Both the position numbers and the translations under genes were made by a program. The notes under the pieces are model-generated. The model made no database searches. It was given only the letters and a program-made list of their open reading frames with translations, and was not told the DNA's origin. Positions 18,970 through 36,524 of a stretch of 64,000 nt of DNA are shown here, piece by piece. Position 1 is the first letter of the stretch. Each line of letters begins with the position of its first letter. The stretch is from Candidatus Kryptoniota bacterium (GTDB taxonomy: Bacteria > Bacteroidota > Ignavibacteria > Kryptoniales > JAKASW01), in assembly GCA_049966155.1 (NCBI GenBank), contig JBMFVE010000001.1, positions 223,831 through 287,830 of the forward strand, in the 5' to 3' direction.

Positions 18970-19587
18970 TCAAATAATGCCCTTTGCTTTCTCAATAAAC
19001 TTATTAACCTTCTCCTTGTCTTTTTTACCAGGGTAAATCTCAACACCCGAAGCTACATCAACTCCATATGGTTTAAGGATTCTTACAACTTCTGATACAT
19101 TTTCCGGTGTCAACCCCCCAGAAATCACAAACTTAAAAGAAAAATCCATGCCGCTCGAAAGCAGTATTTCATGGTCAATTGCTCTCCCCGTTCCACCATA
19201 TTCTCCCTCTACAAATGTATCAAGGAAAATAAGATCGCCGGGCAACTTAGATGCTGCTACAATGTCATTAGCCGATTTAACTCGTATAGATAAATAAAGC
19301 GGTTTGGAAAGCGAGTAGTCATACAAATTAAACTGTGGTTCATACACCTGAATTCCATCCAGCAATAATTCGTCAGAAATCCTCATAATCTGTTCCAGAT
19401 CCGGTTTCACAAATAATCCGACCACGCGGACAAAAGGCGACACTTCTCTAATAATTAAATCTGCCACTTCCATTGTAACGAATCTCTTGCTTGAAGGATA
19501 GAAATTCAACCCAATTGCGTCAGCACCACTTTCCACACAATAATAGGCATCTTCTATGCTGGTTATACCACAAATTTTCACAAACAT
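18970..19587 (-). CDS. trpF: Phosphoribosylanthranilate isomerase
   Basis: MFVKICGIT... is a typical TrpF N-terminus. The track start at 19635 is TTG; I chose the ATG at 19587. Confidence 0.85.
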
Positions 19588-27952: not shown

Positions 27953-29433
27953 TTTGCACCTCCATTACTTGTTACGGCACTTGATGTTAACAACTTGCTG
28001 TGCCAGCGCCCATAGGCAAAATATATAATAAGACCGATTGTCAGCCAGATAAGGAACCTGAACCATGTAATTGTCGGGAGACCCAGCATCAGGTAAAGAC
28101 AGGAAAGAATTCCAAGTATAGGTACGGCTGGGACCAATGGAGTTCTAAATCCTCGCCTGGCATGAGGCTCCTTTACACGCAGGATTAACACACCGGCACA
28201 TACCAGCACAAATGCAAATAGTGTACCTATGTTTGTTAACTCAGCAGCCTCACTAATGTTGGCAATTGCTGCAAAAAATGCAACGAATATCCCGGTCAAA
28301 ATTGTGGTGACGTAGGGAGTCCGGTATTTCGGATGAACTTTTGAAAAACTTGGAGGCAGCAATCCATCTCTTGACATCGAGAAAAATATCCGGGGCTGAC
28401 CCAATTGGAATACAAGCAGTACAGCTGTAGTTGCTATGACAGCGCCAAAAGCTACCACACCAGCAGCCCAGTTCAAATGAATAAGATGAAGTGCAAGCGC
28501 TAATGGCTCGGCAGTAGCTAACTTCGTATAAGGCACCAACCCAGTAAGTACAAGCGCTACAGCAATATACAAAACCGTAGAAATCAATAAAGAAGCTATC
28601 ATACCTATGGGAAGTGTTCTGGATGGATCCTTTGTTTCCTCTGCTGCTGTCGAAACAGCATCAAAACCAATATAAGCAAAAAAGACAATTGCAGCGCCAG
28701 TTTGAATTCCTTTCCAGCCGTTCGGGGCAAAGGGAATCCAATTTTGCGGCTTTACGAAGAATGCGCCAACTCCAATAAAAAAAAGGAGTATCAAAATTTT
28801 TATAGCAACCATTATGGAATTGAAACGAGCGCTTTCTTTGATGCCTATGACGAGAATATAAGTAATAAAGGCAACGATCAGAACTGCAAACAAATTGAAA
28901 ACAATTGGAATTCCAAATAGGTGCGGAGCATCATTAATGCGCCCAGGCTGCTCAAGTGTAGTCCGTATATCAGTCACAAGATACCATGGAATCTGAATTC
29001 CAAATCCGCTCAACAATTCTTTAAAATACCCCGCCCAGCTAATGGCTACGGCAATATTGCCGACAGCATATTCCAAGATCAAATCCCAGCCAATGATCCA
29101 TGCAATTAACTCGCCAAGTGAAGCATAAGAATATGTGTAAGCACTCCCTGCAATGGGAATCATAGATGCAATTTCAGCATAGCAAAGAGCAGCAAACCCA
29201 CAAGCAATTGCGGTCAGGATAAAAGATATAACAAGAGCCGGCCCGGCACCTGCATACTCCGAACTTCCAGCTGCAGCGGTTCCTGTCATTGCAAAAATCC
29301 CGGCACCAATTATTGCACCCACACCTAAAGTGGTTAAATCAAATGCATTTAAACTTCTCTTCAGTTTATATTCTGGTTTTTCGCTATCCGCTATAATGTC
29401 ATCAAGCTTCTTGGTACGAAAAAGGCCTGGCAA
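27949..29433 (-). CDS. APC-superfamily amino acid permease
   Basis: 494 aa with about 12-14 TM helices and a GVGAIIGAGIF motif near the N-terminus. TTG start. Confidence 0.85.
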   Translation of the reverse strand: MPGLFRTKKLDDIIADSEKPEYKLKRSLNAFDLTTLGVGAIIGAGIFAMTGTAAAGSSEYAGAGPALVISFILTAIACGFAALCYAEIASMIPIAGSAYTYSYASLGELIAWIIGWDLILEYAVGNIAVAISWAGYFKELLSGFGIQIPWYLVTDIRTTLEQPGRINDAPHLFGIPIVFNLFAVLIVAFITYILVIGIKESARFNSIMVAIKILILLFFIGVGAFFVKPQNWIPFAPNGWKGIQTGAAIVFFAYIGFDAVSTAAEETKDPSRTLPIGMIASLLISTVLYIAVALVLTGLVPYTKLATAEPLALALHLIHLNWAAGVVAFGAVIATTAVLLVFQLGQPRIFFSMSRDGLLPPSFSKVHPKYRTPYVTTILTGIFVAFFAAIANISEAAELTNIGTLFAFVLVCAGVLILRVKEPHARRGFRTPLVPAVPILGILSCLYLMLGLPTITWFRFLIWLTIGLIIYFAYGRWHSKLLTSSAVTSNGGAK

Positions 29434-29647
29434 GTTAACCTCACAAATTTTTTAACAATTTGCAATCTATTGACATCCTGTCAGAAATGCAATGAAATTC
29501 ACATCATGCTGAAATTGGTCATTGGCAGGCAGACTCAACAGCAACGGTTAAAAAAATTCCACGGGTTTCTCCATAGTCACAAACCCTGTCATTTCTTGCA
29601 CAATCATACGTTTTTTTAACTTTTAACTTGATTTTTATTTGCCATAT

Positions 29648-29663
29648 CCATACATTTGTATGG
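29648..29663 (+). promoter_or_regulatory. Perfect 7-2-7 palindrome CCATACA-TT-TGTATGG, a candidate LexA operator overlapping a predicted -7 promoter element
   Basis: Read directly from the sequence, 20 nt upstream of the lexA ATG. It contains TACATTTG (29651-29658), which matches the Bacteroidetes-type -7 consensus TAnnTTTG. A TTG lies at 29628-29630, 20 nt upstream. An AGGAG Shine-Dalgarno sits at 29671-29675. Confidence 0.45.
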
Positions 29664-29682
29664 TATTGATAGGAGAAATAAA

Positions 29683-30297
29683 ATGGCAGAGGTTACAAAA
29701 CGACAGCAAGAAATAATCAGTTTCATCAAGGAATTTACATATAGAAAAGGATATGCCCCGACTTTAAGGGAGATTGCCGATGCATTCCATGTGTCGGTTG
29801 GATCGGTTCAAGATGTAATAAATGCTCTGCTGAAAAAGAATTTAATTCAAAAAGACAAAAGGCTTTCAAGAGCAATTAGACTTGTTGAGAAAGATAATCG
29901 CATACCCCTTTACGCATCAGCGCGGGGCGGCACTCCACGAATTGTTGACGAAGAGCCCAGGGAGTATCTTGACCCTGAAACAATGCTTGGAATTAAACCG
30001 GGCGATAAAGCATTGCAAATAGTTGGTGACAGCATGATAGGAGCCGGCATAACCGACGGATCAATCGTCTTATTTAGACCTACAAAAGATGTACGTGATG
30101 GCGACATTGTGGTTACACGCATAGAAGATGGCGTTACCGTGAAGACGCTTGCACACCACGGAAAAAATATTTTACTCAAAGCTGAAAATTCCAACTACAA
30201 ACCCATAATACTCGAACCATCAGTAGACAACTTCGAAATTCTCGGGAAAGTGATATGTGTCATAAATCGATTTACTAAATTTAAAAAGCTAAAGTGA
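29683..30297 (+). CDS. lexA: LexA-family transcriptional repressor (wHTH + S24 autopeptidase)
   Basis: 204 aa from the ATG at 29683 (the track start at 29656 is TTG). The N-terminal LexA DNA-binding domain reads RQQEIISFIKEFTYRKGYAPTLREIADAFHVSVGSVQDVINALLKKNLI. The S24 domain has GDSM (Ser117) and VTVKTL (Lys154), spaced as in E. coli Ser119/Lys156. Confidence 0.85.
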   Translation: MAEVTKRQQEIISFIKEFTYRKGYAPTLREIADAFHVSVGSVQDVINALLKKNLIQKDKRLSRAIRLVEKDNRIPLYASARGGTPRIVDEEPREYLDPETMLGIKPGDKALQIVGDSMIGAGITDGSIVLFRPTKDVRDGDIVVTRIEDGVTVKTLAHHGKNILLKAENSNYKPIILEPSVDNFEILGKVICVINRFTKFKKLK

Positions 30298-30303
30298 CAG
30301 CGC

Positions 30304-31260
30304 ATGACACAGAGAAAACATATTACACCGTATTACGTAAAGGTTGGCACTGCCGGCTGGAATTATGATGATTGGGTTGGTGTGTTTTATCCGGAGAGTA
30401 ACAGGAAAAATTTCTCAAAACTAAAATTTTATTCGGAATTTTTTGACTGTGTAGAAGTTAACAGCACATACTACCGGCACTTACCTTATAAAATTGCAGA
30501 AAAATGGCTTAATGAGGTTGCCGGCAATCAAGAATTCGAATTTATTATAAAGCTTTTTAAAAATTTTACTCATGGTACACAGAAAACAAATTCTCAATTC
30601 TATAATGATAAAGAAGCAGTGAAAAATTTCCTGTATCCATTCATCGAAAGAAAAAAACTGGCGGGAATGTTAATACAATTTTCAGAATTCTTCTTGGCTA
30701 CCGATAAATCAAAATCGTACCTATCATTTCTTATGGAAGAATTTTCCGATGTCAGGACTTTCCTCGAACTGCGACATAATTCATGGTATAGGGATGATAA
30801 TATGGAATTTCTGAAAAGTCTTAACACAAATGTAGTAACTGTTGATCAACCTGCTTTAAAAAATATGGTTGGTTTTACAACGGAAGCTGCCGGCAAAGTG
30901 GGATATTTCCGCCTGCACGGCAGAAACTATGACAGGTGGATGGAGAGCCGAAAAGCACTTACAAATGGGATAACAATCGATGACTCACAGCGGAATGAGC
31001 GCTACAATTACCTTTACAGTAGTGAGGAAATTGACGAGATTGAAAAGAGGATACGCGCTATTAAGGAAAAATGCCAAGGCATATATGTGGTGCTAAATAA
31101 CCATCCTCTTGGTAAAGCAGCCGCAAATGCACTTGAACTATTAAAGCGCTTAAAGAACAGGGAAAAAATTAAAGTACCGTCGACAATTTTACGGTTTTTC
31201 CCAGAATTAAGAAAATTTGCCGACGAGGTTAATGTGAATCAAGATGACAGCCTGTTTTGA
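30304..31260 (+). CDS. DUF72 (YecE/UPF0759) family TIM-barrel protein
   Basis: 318 aa with the typical DUF72 N-terminus (VGTAGWNYDDWVGVFYPE...FDCVEVNSTYY). Starts 6 nt after the lexA stop. The C-terminus ends ...NQDDSLF. Confidence 0.85.
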   Translation: MTQRKHITPYYVKVGTAGWNYDDWVGVFYPESNRKNFSKLKFYSEFFDCVEVNSTYYRHLPYKIAEKWLNEVAGNQEFEFIIKLFKNFTHGTQKTNSQFYNDKEAVKNFLYPFIERKKLAGMLIQFSEFFLATDKSKSYLSFLMEEFSDVRTFLELRHNSWYRDDNMEFLKSLNTNVVTVDQPALKNMVGFTTEAAGKVGYFRLHGRNYDRWMESRKALTNGITIDDSQRNERYNYLYSSEEIDEIEKRIRAIKEKCQGIYVVLNNHPLGKAAANALELLKRLKNREKIKVPSTILRFFPELRKFADEVNVNQDDSLF

Positions 31261-31891
31261 TATAAACTGTAATGTGGCATTCCGCCAAACACTGCACACA
31301 GATGATCTGCCATCCACTGTAGATTCCATATTAAATTCGGTTGGTAATCGATTGCCGGGCAAAACATACCTTCTAACAGGAAGCCGTAACGTTTATAAAA
31401 TGTCATTGGTAATCATGTACCAGCTCTTAAAGCGCAATATGTGTGTTGTACTTGTTGATGGCGCAAATCGTTTTGAATTATATTCGTTGACCCGGCAGGC
31501 TGAAACGGATAATATTGAACCTTATCAAATCTTACAAAAAGTTTTTATTTCGCGTGTTTTTACTGCTTACCAAATGGATGGCTTGATAACAGGTGGCGTG
31601 CAACCATTTATGAAACAAATAAACTCACACGCGTTGTTCATTTTTGGTCCTCTTCATACGTTTTATGATGACCATGTACCACTCAAGGACTCTATTCAAA
31701 GTCTTGATCGGATAAGACTCACACTTGATTTCATGAAGGAAGAAGGCGTGTCAATTGTTATTGCCTCAGAATTTCTCGTCCCTTCAAAGAAGGATAAAAC
31801 AATTCTCTTCAAGAAAATGACTTACATGTCTAATGAGATATATAAACTCGATGATGAATCGTTAAAACTAATTCCTGTTAGGAGGGTGTGA
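31244..31891 (+). CDS. RecA/KaiC-fold protein with degenerate Walker A/B motifs (ImuA-like in logic, family unassigned)
   Basis: 215 aa. STVDSILNSVGNRLPGKTYLLTGSRNVYKMSLV follows the RecA/RadA/KaiC pattern (TGxxxLDxxLGGGLxxGxxxLIxGxxGxGKT). The P-loop reads GSRNVYKM and the Walker B strand reads ALFIFGPL, with no acidic residue. It overlaps the DUF72 3' end by 17 nt; a GTG at 31274 is an alternative start. Confidence 0.55.
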   Translation: MTACFDINCNVAFRQTLHTDDLPSTVDSILNSVGNRLPGKTYLLTGSRNVYKMSLVIMYQLLKRNMCVVLVDGANRFELYSLTRQAETDNIEPYQILQKVFISRVFTAYQMDGLITGGVQPFMKQINSHALFIFGPLHTFYDDHVPLKDSIQSLDRIRLTLDFMKEEGVSIVIASEFLVPSKKDKTILFKKMTYMSNEIYKLDDESLKLIPVRRV

Positions 31892-31893
31892 TA

Positions 31894-32187
31894 ATGGGAC
31901 GTACAGTGCCGACTTTTACAATGGTTATACAAGAGCATCAATTAAGATGGAAAAAATTTAGGGAAGCTCTAAGGAAAGAGGATCAGGAAATATTTGATGA
32001 TCTTTTCCGAGCTCCTAAAATCCATTTAGCTGCATGTGCTTACGCTGCTAATCCAGTACCGTTTGAAAACATAGTTATGTCAATGCTAATTGAAGAACAT
32101 AAACATATAATTCAACTTGAAAAGACACTCTCAAAACTCATGCTTCAACTTCAAACGCTGGAAGAGAGCCATAAAGAAATAATATGA
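31894..32187 (+). CDS. Hypothetical 97-aa protein, predicted mostly helical, no recognisable family
   Basis: An AGGAGG lies 8 nt upstream of the ATG at 31894 (the track start at 31888 is GTG). The stop overlaps the polB ATG (ATGA). The C-terminal third (IIQLEKTLSKLMLQLQTLEESHKEII) looks coiled-coil-like. Confidence 0.6.
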   Translation: MGRTVPTFTMVIQEHQLRWKKFREALRKEDQEIFDDLFRAPKIHLAACAYAANPVPFENIVMSMLIEEHKHIIQLEKTLSKLMLQLQTLEESHKEII

Positions 32188-34439
32188 AAGGATGGTTATT
32201 TGACATTTATGCTTCTCCCAATGGGATGACACTCTGGTTTATCTCTGAAACGGGAAAACGTGTCTCAGCACACGCACCTTTTATCCCCAAATTTTACATC
32301 CATATAGATGAAAACAAAATTGGTCTGATAACAAAAATAGCATCCCGTCTTGGACAGTGTTGTGAAATCTCAAAATGGAAAGAAATGGTCGAAATATACA
32401 GCGGCCAGTGCATTAAAGTTCTCGAAATCCTCGTTAAGGACACAATGAATTTTAGTAAATGCGTTAAGGCTTTTGAAGCTGAGCTTCCTTACTATGTGTT
32501 TTTTAATACCGATCTTTCTCCTGTTCAAATGTTTCTGTTTGAAAAAGATCTGTTTCCGCTTGCCTATGGGGAATATACAATTTCCGGTGACGGAAAGGTT
32601 GTTGAACAAAATACACAAGATAGTCCCGATGCTCTTGATTATAAACTCCCGCCGTTGTCAATTATGTATTTGAAACCATCTATACTTGAGATAGCACCGA
32701 AATATCAGCAAAATATAACACTTGAAGTTGAATATGATGACAAAAACTACATTATTGAAGCAGAAGATGCACAGGAACTGCTCACAAGACTAAATTTTCA
32801 TATTGAACGCTGTGACCCCGATTTGATCATAAGCCATTATGGAGATAGCTCTATCTTTCCCTGGCTGGTATCACTGTCAAGTAAGTTTAAGGTACCACTT
32901 AAACTAAACCGCGATCCGACTGCACCATTTGCACGCAAACATGACGTTAGTTACTGGAGCTACGGACAGATAATTTATAAGGCGGGGTCCTTTGAACTTG
33001 CCGGAAGGTGGCACCTCGACGTGGAAAACTCCTTCATAATAGACCAGTCCGATTTGCCCGGACTTTTTGAGCTTGCAAGATTAACCAGGATCCCTATCCA
33101 GAGACAGGCACGGGAAACAATTGGAACTGGATTGTCATCGTTGCAGCTGGCCTGGGCTTACAAACATAACATCCTTATACCCTCTAAGAAACAGGAGTGG
33201 GAACAGTTCAAATCAGGATATCAGCTCCTTCTTTCCGATCGAGGTGGACTAATCTTTCTTCCAAAAATTGGCTATCATGAAAATGTTGCTGAACTCGATT
33301 TTGCCTCAATGTATCCAACCCTTATGTGCATTCACAACATCTCGCCCGAAACTGTAAATTGCCAGTGTTGTAGCAACCAAAAAGTACCTGAGCTGGGATA
33401 TACCTTATGTGAAAATAGAAAGGGGATTGTACCTGAAACACTGGAAGCTGTTCTGAGCAAAAGGACTGCATACAAAAAGCGCGAGAAGGAAGCAAAAACC
33501 AATAAAGAGAAAAGCGAATATCATCAAAGACAAATAGCCCTTAAGTGGCTGCTTGTAACATGTTTCGGATACCTTGGATATAAAAATGCTCGATTTGGAA
33601 GAATAGAGGCTCATGAATCTGTCAACGCCTTTTCCAGAGATGCGCTTTTAAAGGCTAAGGCAATTGCTGAGGAGCGGGGATTTGAAATTGTTCACGGAAT
33701 AGTGGATTGCTTATGGTTAAAAAAGGATGGTGCCAGCGCTGATGATTACATCAAATTGAGTGATGAAATATCAAAGGAAACAGGTGTAAGCATAAGTTTT
33801 GACGGAATATATAAATGGATACTTTTTCCAAACTCGAGAACCGATCCGGAAATTCCCACCTCTAATAGGTATGTGGGAGTATATACAAACAATGAGTTGA
33901 AAGTGCGAGGGCTGGAAGTACGCCGTGGCGATGCCCCACTTTTCGTAAAAAAAGTACAAGCAGATGTACTTAAACTTATGACAACCGCCTCTGGAATAGA
34001 AGAGCTAAAGCATATGGCATCTGAGATTATCCAGGTAATGAAGATACATCTTGAAAGACTTGCAACTGGTCGCGTTGATCCTCTTGAATTAGTTATTAAA
34101 CGTACAATTTCAAAAGAAGCAGATGAGTACATGAATCAAAGCATGCAGGCAATTGTCGCAAAGACAATGGCAGAAGAAGGTGTTGCATTAATGCCTGGAG
34201 AGACAGCTGAATTTATAATCATAGACAGTACGGGTAAAAAATACCCACAAAAAGTTAAACCTTTTTTGTTTTACAAACCCGAAGATGGATATGACATTGA
34301 CAAATATACAGAGCTTACCATCAAGTCAATAGAGATCCTGCTAAATCCTCTTGGATACGATTACGACTGGATTGCAGAACAGCTAATTACCAACATATTT
34401 ACCAATCCATCCCAGCACGGTATCGTACCACAACTTTGA
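32184..34439 (+). CDS. polB: Family-B DNA polymerase, archaeal/Pol II-like, with degenerate exonuclease motifs
   Basis: 751 aa and collinear by eye with archaeal PolB. DPDLIISHYGDSSIFPWL corresponds to DPDIIxxYNGDxFDxPYL. Motif A is LDFASMYPTL, motif B is KWLLVTCFGYLGY, motif C is HGIVDC, and the distal region reads NRY...VRGLEVRRGD. See the findings for the motif losses. Confidence 0.9.
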   Translation: MKGWLFDIYASPNGMTLWFISETGKRVSAHAPFIPKFYIHIDENKIGLITKIASRLGQCCEISKWKEMVEIYSGQCIKVLEILVKDTMNFSKCVKAFEAELPYYVFFNTDLSPVQMFLFEKDLFPLAYGEYTISGDGKVVEQNTQDSPDALDYKLPPLSIMYLKPSILEIAPKYQQNITLEVEYDDKNYIIEAEDAQELLTRLNFHIERCDPDLIISHYGDSSIFPWLVSLSSKFKVPLKLNRDPTAPFARKHDVSYWSYGQIIYKAGSFELAGRWHLDVENSFIIDQSDLPGLFELARLTRIPIQRQARETIGTGLSSLQLAWAYKHNILIPSKKQEWEQFKSGYQLLLSDRGGLIFLPKIGYHENVAELDFASMYPTLMCIHNISPETVNCQCCSNQKVPELGYTLCENRKGIVPETLEAVLSKRTAYKKREKEAKTNKEKSEYHQRQIALKWLLVTCFGYLGYKNARFGRIEAHESVNAFSRDALLKAKAIAEERGFEIVHGIVDCLWLKKDGASADDYIKLSDEISKETGVSISFDGIYKWILFPNSRTDPEIPTSNRYVGVYTNNELKVRGLEVRRGDAPLFVKKVQADVLKLMTTASGIEELKHMASEIIQVMKIHLERLATGRVDPLELVIKRTISKEADEYMNQSMQAIVAKTMAEEGVALMPGETAEFIIIDSTGKKYPQKVKPFLFYKPEDGYDIDKYTELTIKSIEILLNPLGYDYDWIAEQLITNIFTNPSQHGIVPQL

Positions 34440-36524
34440 ATCCAGCGGTTTTGTCACAAAATGATATTCATTTGGGAAATATAGCATCTCTGAGGGAACA
34501 CCTTGCATTTGAAGTGCAGTGAAGAGCTGAAATCCTTGACTGACATCGAGGCGAAAATCGTTTTGACTGTGAATTACGAGCATTGGCGTTTTGAAGTTCC
34601 TCACGTACGTGCTGGGGGACCATCTTTTGTACATCTCGGGATTTGACCACGGGGTTCCTTTGAATTCCCACAACGGAAACCAGAGTTCTTCGGTGGAACC
34701 GAATGCACTTGCCGCATCAAATAAGCCATCATGGCTCACGAAGCATTTAAAAATCCCGCTGTCATTGTGCCCCTCCATCCAGTTAATCATGTAACCACCA
34801 TACGACGCACCTGCAGCTGCAATCTTGTTTTTATCGATAAAGGAATAATGGCTGATGACATAATTGACCCCTTTCATGAGGTCAGCATAAACCTTGCCGC
34901 CCCAGTCTCCACTTATCTCATTTGTAAATTTCTGCCCGTAACCGGTTGAACCTCGTGGGTTTATCATGACTGCAACATATCCGGGCGCAGCAAAGAGTTC
35001 AGCATTCCATCTGTAGTGAAATTCGTCCATCCATTGCCCCTGAGGTCCTCCATGAATCAGCAAGATCATGGGGTACTTGCTCCCTGGCTCAAAATGCGGT
35101 GGTTTAACTATAAATCCCTCAACTTTTGTCCCCCCTGCGCCGGTAAACCAAAATGGTTCCCAGGGATTCATTTCAAGCTGTGTAAGAAGCGAATCGTTTG
35201 CATGCGTAAGCTGTGTAATTTCATGTGTCTGCAAGTTCATTTTGTAAATATCATTCGGATGAGTTACCGACTGGCGAAGAAAAACGAGATACTTGCCATC
35301 AGAGGTAATCCTAAGTTCAGTGATTGTGGAATTGTCTGTTATCTTCTGAATTTTACCAGTTGATACATCAACTTCAAAAATATCGTGATATCCCTTATCG
35401 TCGGAATCAAAATAGAGCTTCCTGCCGTCTGGCGACCATACCACTTCATCGACTGATCGATCGAATTTTTCCGTCAAATCAATGGTTTTTCTCTTTCCTT
35501 TCACTCCATTTGGAGCCCTTCTGTCGTACAACATTAACCTTTCTCTATCAGATTCAAAACCTGGGGTCAATTGTGCTCTATAGGCAATATAACGGCCATC
35601 AGGGGAATAAATAGGCTGATTGTCATTTCCCTTGTTGGTAGTAATGCGCCTGGATACACCACCATTTAAGCTTACAGTGAACAAATCATTATTGGTACTA
35701 ACGGCTATCATTTTATCGGTATTTTTTACATAGCATACCTCTTTGCTATCAGGGGAAAAGGAATAATCGATTCGGCCTCCAAGGTCAATTGGAGGAGTGT
35801 CGTAATCTCCAGGCGTCAAATCTCTCGTAGTACCGCTGTCGACGCTAACTACAAACAAATGGCTTCGCTTGCCATCTTTCCAGTAATTCCAGACTCGATA
35901 CGGAAGTGTCGTAAATATTTTTGCCCTGACCTTCCCGTTTTCAAGTTCTTTTTCACGTACCGCGTTTGCAGAATCAGTTTTGCAATCTGGAAAGACGCTG
36001 GAAGCAAACGCAATATATTTGCCATCTGGCGACCACAATAGTCCGCTCACACCAAGCACAGTGCTTGTGATTTTTCTCGGATTTCCTCCGTTCACTCTCT
36101 CAACGTATATTTGCTGCACACCATCCGTGTCATCAGCTACAAAAGCCATTTCCCTGCCGTCAGGCGACCATGAAGGTTCACTAACTGATTTCAGTCCGGT
36201 CTCAAATTTTCTCGGAGTACCTCCATTTATAGAAACAAAAAAGATTCTGCTCGTTCCACTATTAGTATTCATATTGTAAGTGGTAACAACGTATGCAATC
36301 GTTTTTCCGTCAGGTGATACCTGTGGATTGGAGACTCTCGCAACCTTCCACATGTCTTCAACTGTAATGGGGTGTCTCTCCTCTATTTTAATTGAACGAT
36401 TATCAATTTGCGCATAAGCAATGATTGGGATTAAAAATAAACTCAAAGTTAAGAGATTGATCAACCTTTGCACAACAGCTCCTTTTTTTGAAGGGTTAAC
36501 TAATGAAAGAATTAAAGGCCTCAT
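34383..36524 (-). CDS. S9-family serine peptidase (prolyl oligopeptidase/dipeptidyl peptidase type) with an N-terminal beta-propeller
   Basis: 713 aa with a signal-like N-terminus, repeated SPDG[KR] PD40/TolB-like blades and a C-terminal alpha/beta hydrolase with the nucleophile elbow GASYGGYM. The 3' end overlaps the polB 3' end by 57 nt. Confidence 0.85.
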   Translation of the reverse strand: MRPLILSLVNPSKKGAVVQRLINLLTLSLFLIPIIAYAQIDNRSIKIEERHPITVEDMWKVARVSNPQVSPDGKTIAYVVTTYNMNTNSGTSRIFFVSINGGTPRKFETGLKSVSEPSWSPDGREMAFVADDTDGVQQIYVERVNGGNPRKITSTVLGVSGLLWSPDGKYIAFASSVFPDCKTDSANAVREKELENGKVRAKIFTTLPYRVWNYWKDGKRSHLFVVSVDSGTTRDLTPGDYDTPPIDLGGRIDYSFSPDSKEVCYVKNTDKMIAVSTNNDLFTVSLNGGVSRRITTNKGNDNQPIYSPDGRYIAYRAQLTPGFESDRERLMLYDRRAPNGVKGKRKTIDLTEKFDRSVDEVVWSPDGRKLYFDSDDKGYHDIFEVDVSTGKIQKITDNSTITELRITSDGKYLVFLRQSVTHPNDIYKMNLQTHEITQLTHANDSLLTQLEMNPWEPFWFTGAGGTKVEGFIVKPPHFEPGSKYPMILLIHGGPQGQWMDEFHYRWNAELFAAPGYVAVMINPRGSTGYGQKFTNEISGDWGGKVYADLMKGVNYVISHYSFIDKNKIAAAGASYGGYMINWMEGHNDSGIFKCFVSHDGLFDAASAFGSTEELWFPLWEFKGTPWSNPEMYKRWSPSTYVRNFKTPMLVIHSQNDFRLDVSQGFQLFTALQMQGVPSEMLYFPNEYHFVTKPLDSKLWYDTVLGWIGKYVGN

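Follow-up and report, generated by a model that had tools for sequence, protein, structure and literature searches.

Family-B DNA polymerases of the PolB2 group have been linked in archaea with a small helical protein (arCOG07300) and an inactivated RadA, and the same three genes have been reported in bacteria, where in some cases lexA belongs to the same predicted operon, as in Leptospirillum ferriphilum (LFML04_0990-0993) (Makarova, Krupovic and Koonin 2014, PMC4104785). The names iRadA and PPB2 were coined by Timinskas, Timinskas and Venclovas (2025, PMC11791011), according to whom bacterial operons are always ordered iRadA-PPB2-PolB2 and a single transfer from archaea to bacteria is inferred. 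In the same study, PolB2, iRadA and a PPB2 trimer were modeled with AlphaFold as a heteropentameric mutasome, and lexA (108 neighborhoods) and DUF72 (119 neighborhoods) were found to be enriched next to the operon. The group is listed as bacterial G2/PolB2 in a 2026 survey (PMC12926913), and Dpo2 of S. islandicus is an active, exonuclease-free extender polymerase for mismatched or lesion-paired primer ends (PMC8764526; PMC11791011). Here, we analyze a 64-kb stretch of DNA from a Candidatus Kryptoniota bacterium (contig JBMFVE010000001.1; hereafter, the window), in which five tightly packed genes, lexA, DUF72, iRadA, PPB2 and PolB2, occupy positions 29683 to 34439 of the plus strand.

As predicted from its genes, this locus is a bacterial PolB2 operon, in which iRadA-PPB2-PolB2 is placed under LexA and accompanied by DUF72, and it represents a system that has already been described. 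The initial annotation had proposed an undescribed system, a claim that has to be withdrawn in view of the lexA-linked operon reported in PMC4104785 and of the mutasome and the lexA and DUF72 enrichment reported in PMC11791011. No new category is opened, since the combination of genes has been published along with its evolutionary origin and its likely role. The further proposal of a LexA-repressed damage tolerance or mutagenesis cassette with a nonproofreading polymerase is well supported and coincides with the reading in the literature. In fact, we consider it very probable that the locus is a LexA-autoregulated SOS operon for a bacterial PolB2 translesion mutasome with a DUF72 accessory protein. 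This interpretation draws on the gene content, family membership, conserved promoter and operator architecture and conserved synteny observed in this study, and, by analogy, on literature reports that Sulfolobus Dpo2 is an active polymerase, acts as an extender and is induced by damage, and on the published AlphaFold heteropentamer.

The open reading frame (ORF) calls agree exactly with the five packed plus-strand genes of the initial annotation, including the junctions of +6, -17, +2 and -4 nucleotides (nt), the last of which is an ATGA overlap. Such overlaps of start and stop codons point to translational coupling. The lexA ORF as mechanically called begins with TTG at 29656, and its ATG start lies at 29683.

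The assignment of the polymerase is based on several independent comparisons. The protein matches PF00136 (E=8.7e-39), and its best NCBIfam model is the archaeal-type NF004416 (400 bits), against only 28 to 71 bits for the Pol II models. In the alignment with PolB of P. abyssi, motif A (LDFASMYP) and motif B are retained, and the HGIVDC segment (Ile506-Val507-Asp508) lies opposite YIDTDG. It follows that motif C reads IVD instead of DTD, with the first Asp replaced by Ile506 and the second (D508) kept. All 15 family members compared have I[VI]D as motif C, and motifs A and B do not vary among them. With regard to proofreading, sequence alignment places LSIMYLKP (family consensus IMxLRN) where the DxE of Exo I is absent, an Ile in the position of the catalytic Asp of Exo II (GDSSIFPWL versus NGDNFDFPYL), and no Tyr at Exo III, so that the exonuclease domain is predicted to lack an active site. 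Both the loss of the exonuclease carboxylates and the resemblance to archaeal PolB2/Dpo2 had been recognized in the initial annotation, and both are borne out. In particular, residues 1 to 379, which comprise the degenerate N-terminal and exonuclease part, share 37% identity end to end (E=3e-75) with the Bathyarchaeota PolB2 NIR87082.1, an archaeal PolB2 fragment from the PMC11791011 data set that served as the reference in place of Sulfolobus PolB2, versus a score of only about 24 bits with PolB of P. abyssi. Furthermore, the accessible part of the table in PMC11791011 includes Bacteroidota and Ignavibacteriota operons with the string HGIVDCLWL, and in a Bacteroidota LexA-iRadA-PPB2-PolB2 operon listed there this string, flagged "IVD," is identical to that of the window. 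Candidatus Kryptoniota was not found in that part of the tables, nor were a "LexA DUF72" row or Sulfolobus rows found in the accessible part of the supplement.

A variable loop at about residues 244 to 256 (DPTAPFARKHD), in which an aromatic residue (F/Y250) is conserved and residue 255 is acidic, occurs at the expected position, as placed without a Sulfolobus reference. In the published model, the corresponding PolB2 loop contains a beta-alpha motif resembling the Rad51 oligomerization motif, followed by D(K/R), and contacts iRadA and PPB2 (PMC11791011). Two other assignments of the polymerase were considered and rejected. An E. coli-type Pol II (group G1) is ruled out by the lost exonuclease residues, the IVD motif C and the low scores of the Pol II models, and a mobile-element or casposon-type PolB by the conserved chromosomal synteny and the lack of an integrase, Cas1 and terminal repeats.

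Searches with the single sequences of ORF3 (iRadA) and ORF4 (PPB2) against Pfam, NCBIfam and the PDB gave no match, and family profiles and structure prediction were therefore needed. For iRadA, a word-indexed homologue search yielded 11 proteins, and the profile was built instead from the ORFs of the surveyed loci (43 sequences). Compared with the PDB, it retrieved archaeal RadA/Rad51 ATPase cores (4a6p, E=2.4e-7), with VDGANRF opposite IDTENTF and ISRxFTxYQ opposite VARAFNSNHQ; taken singly, 6 of the 43 family members matched Pfam Rad51, the best with E=8.5e-16. The AlphaFold2 model (predicted local distance difference test score [pLDDT], 86.6) gave a consistent picture, with all of the top 50 Foldseek matches in the PDB being Rad51, RadA or Dmc1 (E=6.5e-9 to 1e-7). 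In the alignment, iRadA is without the N-terminal helix-hairpin-helix domain and without the GK[ST] P-loop of Walker A (LLTGSRNVYKMS). Thus, of the RecA/KaiC fold with degenerate Walker motifs first annotated, the Walker loss is retained, and the generic fold gives way to a specifically Rad51/RadA-like one.

PPB2 begins with MGRTVPTFT. Of 32 homologues aligned, 31 have the MGRT arm, the diagnostic N-terminal motif of PPB2 (PMC11791011), and an AGGAGG sequence lies 8 nt upstream of the ATG. These two features fix the start at ATG 31894 and rule out the GTG at 31888; of the two junctions left open in the initial annotation (+2 or -4), the former is accordingly kept. The AlphaFold2 model is all-helical (pLDDT, 69.6), with a modest confidence that an obligate oligomer could explain but that is no evidence for one. 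The 97-residue protein is thus helical, as had been noted, but it is not an orphan, given at least 479 homologues with PF26485 (DUF8156).

The first gene encodes a protein that scores 146.5 bits against TIGR00498 (equivalog cutoff, 110.95) and combines the winged helix-turn-helix domain LexA_DNA_bind (PF01726) with Peptidase_S24 (PF00717). Its residues 3 to 195 align with structures of LexA from E. coli (E=8e-27), in which S119 and K156 correspond to Ser117 (GDSM) and Lys154 (VTVK). The description of a bona fide LexA with its catalytic dyad, made from the sequence at the outset, is in line with these results, and the same applies to the DUF72 TIM barrel, for which the Pfam match is joined by the solved structures 1VPQ (E=5e-31) and 1VPY/1ZTV (E=6e-25). 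The DUF72 fold has been described as related to UV-damage endonuclease (Timinskas 2025, PMC11791011).

The perfect palindrome CCATACATTTGTATGG, which had been noticed over the predicted promoter, indeed overlaps the inferred -10 hexamer TACATT (17-nt spacing). The eight Kryptoniota-type loci (the window, L081, L082 and L002 to L006) all have the identical 12-bp core, ATACATTTGTAT; their flanks have otherwise diverged, and in each locus the core is placed 16 nt after a TTGA(C/T)(T/A) -35 box. In the 1.226 Mb of sequence examined, the core occurs eight times, always at the promoter position of the lexA operon, and the window holds a single perfect copy. Conservation at a fixed distance from the -35 box amid diverged flanks argues that the palindrome is more than a chance inverted repeat. 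Moreover, since the -10 hexamer lies within the palindrome, a LexA dimer bound there would be expected to occlude the promoter. A site with one mismatch to the operator, at 19209, lies inside a gene.

The operator does not match the noncanonical LexA motifs of Bacteroidetes (GGA-N5-TCC and CTAA-N5-TTAG) or the LexA direct repeat of Balneolaeota, both of which were tried. Upstream of lexA in five more distant loci (L036, L049, L059, L070 and L077), we could observe AT-rich palindromes of the form GTATA-N4/6-TATAC, sometimes in tandem, 3' of a TTGACA box. These palindromes suggest that the LexA operator has diverged between clades carrying the same operon.

Conservation across genomes was addressed by scanning one genome of each GTDB species with a pattern. 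A relative was present in at least 573 species-level genomes; the PolB2 family is therefore very common in the Ignavibacteriota/Bacteroidota/Kryptoniota group. The neighborhood survey that had been proposed in the initial annotation was conducted on the best 80 of these loci, all from Ignavibacteriota, Bacteroidota or Kryptoniota-type metagenome-assembled genomes, 78 of which could be scored. The order iRadA-PPB2-PolB2 is found in 64 of the 78, and most of the others are interrupted at contig ends. A co-oriented lexA lies upstream in 13 of the scored loci, DUF72 in 8 and both in 4. The two nearest relatives (PolB identity, 89% and 86%) have their five genes in exactly the order seen in the window and at the corresponding chromosomal position, with asparaginase/permease genes on one side and the downstream peptidase region on the other, and the neighborhood is thus not unique to one genome.

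The PMC11791011 table includes both archaeal and bacterial rows in which DUF72 stands directly upstream of iRadA-PPB2-PolB2. Since archaeal rows show the same order (DUF72-DUF72-iRadA-PPB2-PolB2 and SRAP-DUF72-iRadA-PPB2-PolB2), DUF72-iRadA-PPB2-PolB2 is, to judge from gene order, an old module, and the cassette of the window would be the same module behind a bacterial lexA. The coordinates of the features are collected in Table 1.

Table 1. Features of the lexA-PolB2 locus in the window, followed by HTH_3+Peptidase_S24 genes near PolB2 operons in other surveyed loci (positions in the coordinates of the respective locus)
Feature	Position	Strand	Remarks
-35-like hexamer TTGATT of the lexA operon promoter	29630-29635	+	relatives: TTGAC[TA]
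Predicted LexA operator, perfect palindrome CCATACATTTGTATGG	29648-29663	.	core ATACATTTGTAT at 29650-29661
lexA, 204 aa	29683-30297	+	TIGR00498, PF01726, PF00717
DUF72 (PF01904) TIM-barrel protein, 318 aa	30304-31260	+	Pfam E=9.5e-45
iRadA, 215 aa	31244-31891	+	RadA/Rad51 ATPase-core fold by profile and structure model
PPB2 (arCOG07300/DUF8156), 97 aa	31894-32187	+	MGRT arm, PF26485 homologues
PolB2, 751 aa	32184-34439	+	PF00136, NF004416
HTH_3+S24 gene, L008	6087-6911	-	
HTH_3+S24 gene, L024	5951-6700	-	
HTH_3+S24 gene, L045	6118-6774	-	
HTH_3+S24 gene, L030	3995-4753	-	
HTH_3+S24 gene, L021, L029, L035, L044, L050, L007 and L064			

In undamaged cells, a LexA dimer on ATAC-N4-GTAT would repress lexA and the four translationally coupled genes downstream, since the predicted operator overlaps the -10 element of the single promoter. 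Upon DNA damage, RecA filaments on single-stranded DNA would stimulate the self-cleavage of LexA through Ser117/Lys154, and the operon would be derepressed. PolB2, presumably devoid of proofreading and with the I-V-D motif C, would then form a complex with a single iRadA and a trimer of PPB2, one subunit of which would insert its MGRT arm between PolB2 and iRadA, near the DNA. The resulting complex would mainly extend mismatched or lesion-paired primer termini, providing damage tolerance at the cost of mutations, and DUF72 would probably process damaged DNA, either upstream of this step or alongside it.

Some observations weigh against this SOS mutasome interpretation. The LexA cleavage site (29924 to 29929) is Gly82-Gly83 (ARG-GTP), opposite Ala84-Gly85 of E. 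coli, and departs from the canonical Ala-Gly, so that RecA-stimulated self-cleavage is not guaranteed. The Gly-Gly site (ARGG[T/M]P) is common to the LexA proteins of the window and of L002 to L005, whereas Ala-Gly is kept in L006 and in the more distant operon-linked LexA proteins. A search of the 64-kb window for a second copy of the operator gave only near matches at chance level, so that a global SOS role of this LexA is not assured. In PolB2, the D(K/R) loop resembling the Rad51 oligomerization motif was not located without a Sulfolobus reference sequence. A canonical beta-clamp motif was found neither at the C terminus of PolB2 (34377 to 34439, AEQLITNIFTNPSQHGIVPQL) nor at that of iRadA (31850 to 31891, ESLKLIPVRRV), the latter modeled as a beta strand. 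Many PolB2 relatives end in a clamp-type motif (QELPLF, QIPLF or QDLF), and such a C-terminal motif on iRadA or PolB2 is described as optional, being present in a fraction of the systems (PMC11791011). Finally, we infer LexA binding, cotranscription, the enzyme activity of the bacterial protein, the role of DUF72, complex formation and damage induction, and what is known of bacterial PolB2 mutasomes comes solely from comparative genomics and AlphaFold modeling.

It is possible, even if rather unlikely, that lexA is a cassette-specific second paralogue, with its own operator and altered cleavage kinetics, and not the master SOS regulator. Such a role would fit the position of lexA inside the operon, the fact that, within the window and 1.23 Mb of related loci, the operator core is confined to the lexA-operon promoter, and the unusual Gly-Gly scissile site of the window subclade. 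It would also fit the pairing of the operon in other clades with different S24 repressors (divergent HTH_3+S24 genes, about 11 loci), which suggests that repressors travel with the cassette. In Pseudomonas putida, lexA2 heads a lexA2-imuA-imuB-dnaE2 cassette. However, the protein of the window scores above the LexA equivalog cutoff, genes of this kind are treated as lexA in both Makarova 2014 (PMC4104785) and Timinskas 2025 (PMC11791011), and an autoregulated lexA at the head of an SOS operon is normal for a master LexA too. Furthermore, the search for other operators covered a small fraction of each genome, and their absence therefore says little. A bolder version of the same idea, which we regard as speculative and improbable, is that in Kryptoniota an archaeal DUF72-iRadA-PPB2-PolB2 module was captured under a cassette-specific LexA paralogue, with ATAC-N4-GTAT as its operator and the Gly-Gly site tuned for delayed or attenuated induction, and that DUF72 is an obligatory UVDE-like nuclease making the nick or gap used by the PolB2 mutasome. 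If true, the locus would encode a coupled "incise-and-bypass" pathway and not a simple translesion synthesis polymerase.

Two other explanations concern the polymerase and the cassette as a whole. PolB2 could be catalytically inert and its complex nonsynthetic, acting in fork remodeling, replication regulation or damage sensing; this was the original interpretation of 2008 to 2014, and such roles were proposed in Makarova 2014 (PMC4104785). The loss of the first Asp of motif C (IVD) and of the exonuclease site would agree with it, but the Dpo2 enzymes of S. islandicus and S. solfataricus, which carry IID, polymerize DNA robustly and are needed for damage-induced mutagenesis (PMC8764526; PMC11791011). 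Moreover, the bacterial family shows no variation in motif A, motif B or the second Asp of motif C, a sign of selection on catalysis, and we consider an inert polymerase very unlikely. That the five genes are adjacent by chance, or lie in a passing mobile island with no shared function, is hardly tenable. The G+C content of the cassette (0.391, versus a window average of 0.419), its being the sole plus-strand block amid minus-strand neighbors and the variation of the accessory genes between clades would agree with it. On the other hand, the order of the core trio is kept in most species-level genomes surveyed, the start and stop overlaps imply translational coupling, the cassette and its operator occupy the same chromosomal site in the relatives with 86 to 89% PolB identity, and no integrase, repeats or tRNA flank the cassette within the window. 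The conservation data thus effectively exclude this explanation, and the LexA-autoregulated SOS operon for a PolB2 mutasome is the reading we retain.

The surroundings of the cassette comprise an amino acid permease gene upstream and an S9 peptidase gene downstream, both on the minus strand. The peptidase gene (34383 to 36524) is convergent with polB2, and their 3' ends overlap by 57 nt (34383 to 34439); no terminator-like structure was seen between the two genes. The divergent intergenic region contains another perfect palindrome, TGACATCCTGTCA (29471 to 29483), which is closer to the permease gene and may serve in its regulation. Between permease and lexA, upstream of the permease start, the minus strand carries a terminator-like hairpin and then a T-run (29559 to 29576). 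An Rfam scan of positions 29000 to 35000 found nothing, and a scan with promoter and terminator consensus sequences remained at about background level and was uninformative.

Some further arrangements were noticed in the surveyed loci. In about 11 of the 78, a gene for an HTH_3+Peptidase_S24 protein (lambda cI-like, of the "noncanonical LexA" type) lies upstream of the PolB2 operon on the opposite strand, abutting it in about 7 loci and located 0.6 to 2.6 kb away in the remainder. It follows that the linkage of S24 repressors to the operon is broader than canonical lexA. In L036 (2976 to 5305), L049 (4208 to 6154) and L060 (780 to 3343), small genes coding for DUF3224, an AHSA1/SRPBCC protein, a glyoxalase/bleomycin resistance protein and DUF5131 are interposed between lexA and DUF72 and may likewise belong to the LexA-headed unit. 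Just upstream of lexA, L036 and L049 have a tRNA-like sequence.

What is new in this study, compared with the published descriptions, is the predicted operator, the Gly-Gly site of LexA, the conservation of the complete lexA-DUF72-iRadA-PPB2-PolB2 unit in three genomes, and the finding that in Ignavibacteriota the PolB2 operon is often paired with cI-like S24 repressors. The locus is a compact bacterial PolB2 example with the predicted operator ATACATTTGTAT, and we suggest that it is suited to a first experimental test.

Among the known systems, E. coli Pol II (polB) is likewise a LexA-regulated B-family polymerase with extender-type behavior; different from the polymerase of the window, it is a single-subunit enzyme with an intact DEDDy exonuclease and the DTD motif C and belongs to the bacterial PolB group G1 instead of G2/PolB2. 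The imuA-imuB-dnaE2 cassette, which the initial annotation had invoked as a parallel, is also a LexA-regulated operon combining an inactive RecA-like protein, an adaptor and a nonproofreading polymerase. The parallel is fair as an analogy but does not extend to homology, as no component is orthologous: ImuB is a Y-family and DnaE2 a C-family protein, and ImuA is RecA-like and not RadA-like. An ImuA-ImuB-DnaE2 mutasome was itself considered for the locus and ruled out, since neither Y-family nor C-family polymerase domains are detected by Pfam and NCBIfam in any of the five proteins. With E. coli Pol V (UmuD'2C-RecA), as pointed out by Timinskas 2025 (PMC11791011), the system shares LexA/SOS-controlled multisubunit translesion synthesis and the same kinds of parts, namely a catalytic subunit, a protein of the recombinase family and a small subunit that is oligomeric and inserts an N-terminal arm. 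However, Pol V's catalytic subunit is of the Y family, its recombinase is active RecA and not a dedicated inactive paralogue, and UmuD' is an S24 fragment unrelated to PPB2.

The similarity with Sulfolobus Dpo2 is closer, as the polymerases belong to a homologous group and share the IID/IVD substitution in motif C, the lack of proofreading and, as predicted for the operon of the window, damage-inducible expression. Dpo2 is the one with an experimentally shown role as an extender translesion polymerase. In Sulfolobales, the gene order is PPB2-PolB2-iRadA, regulation is of the Orc1/Cdc6 type and not by LexA, and the clamp motif, where present, is of the PCNA and not the beta-clamp type. The closest counterpart of the locus is the bacterial PolB2 mutasome, with which it shares the three core proteins in the bacterial order, a motif C reading IVD, an inactivated exonuclease, a RadA-fold partner devoid of Walker A, the MGRT arm, a lexA gene within the operon and an adjacent DUF72. 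The locus of the window differs from it in the Gly-Gly site of its LexA, in the lack of a canonical clamp motif and in bringing lexA and DUF72 together with the core genes in one tight five-gene unit.

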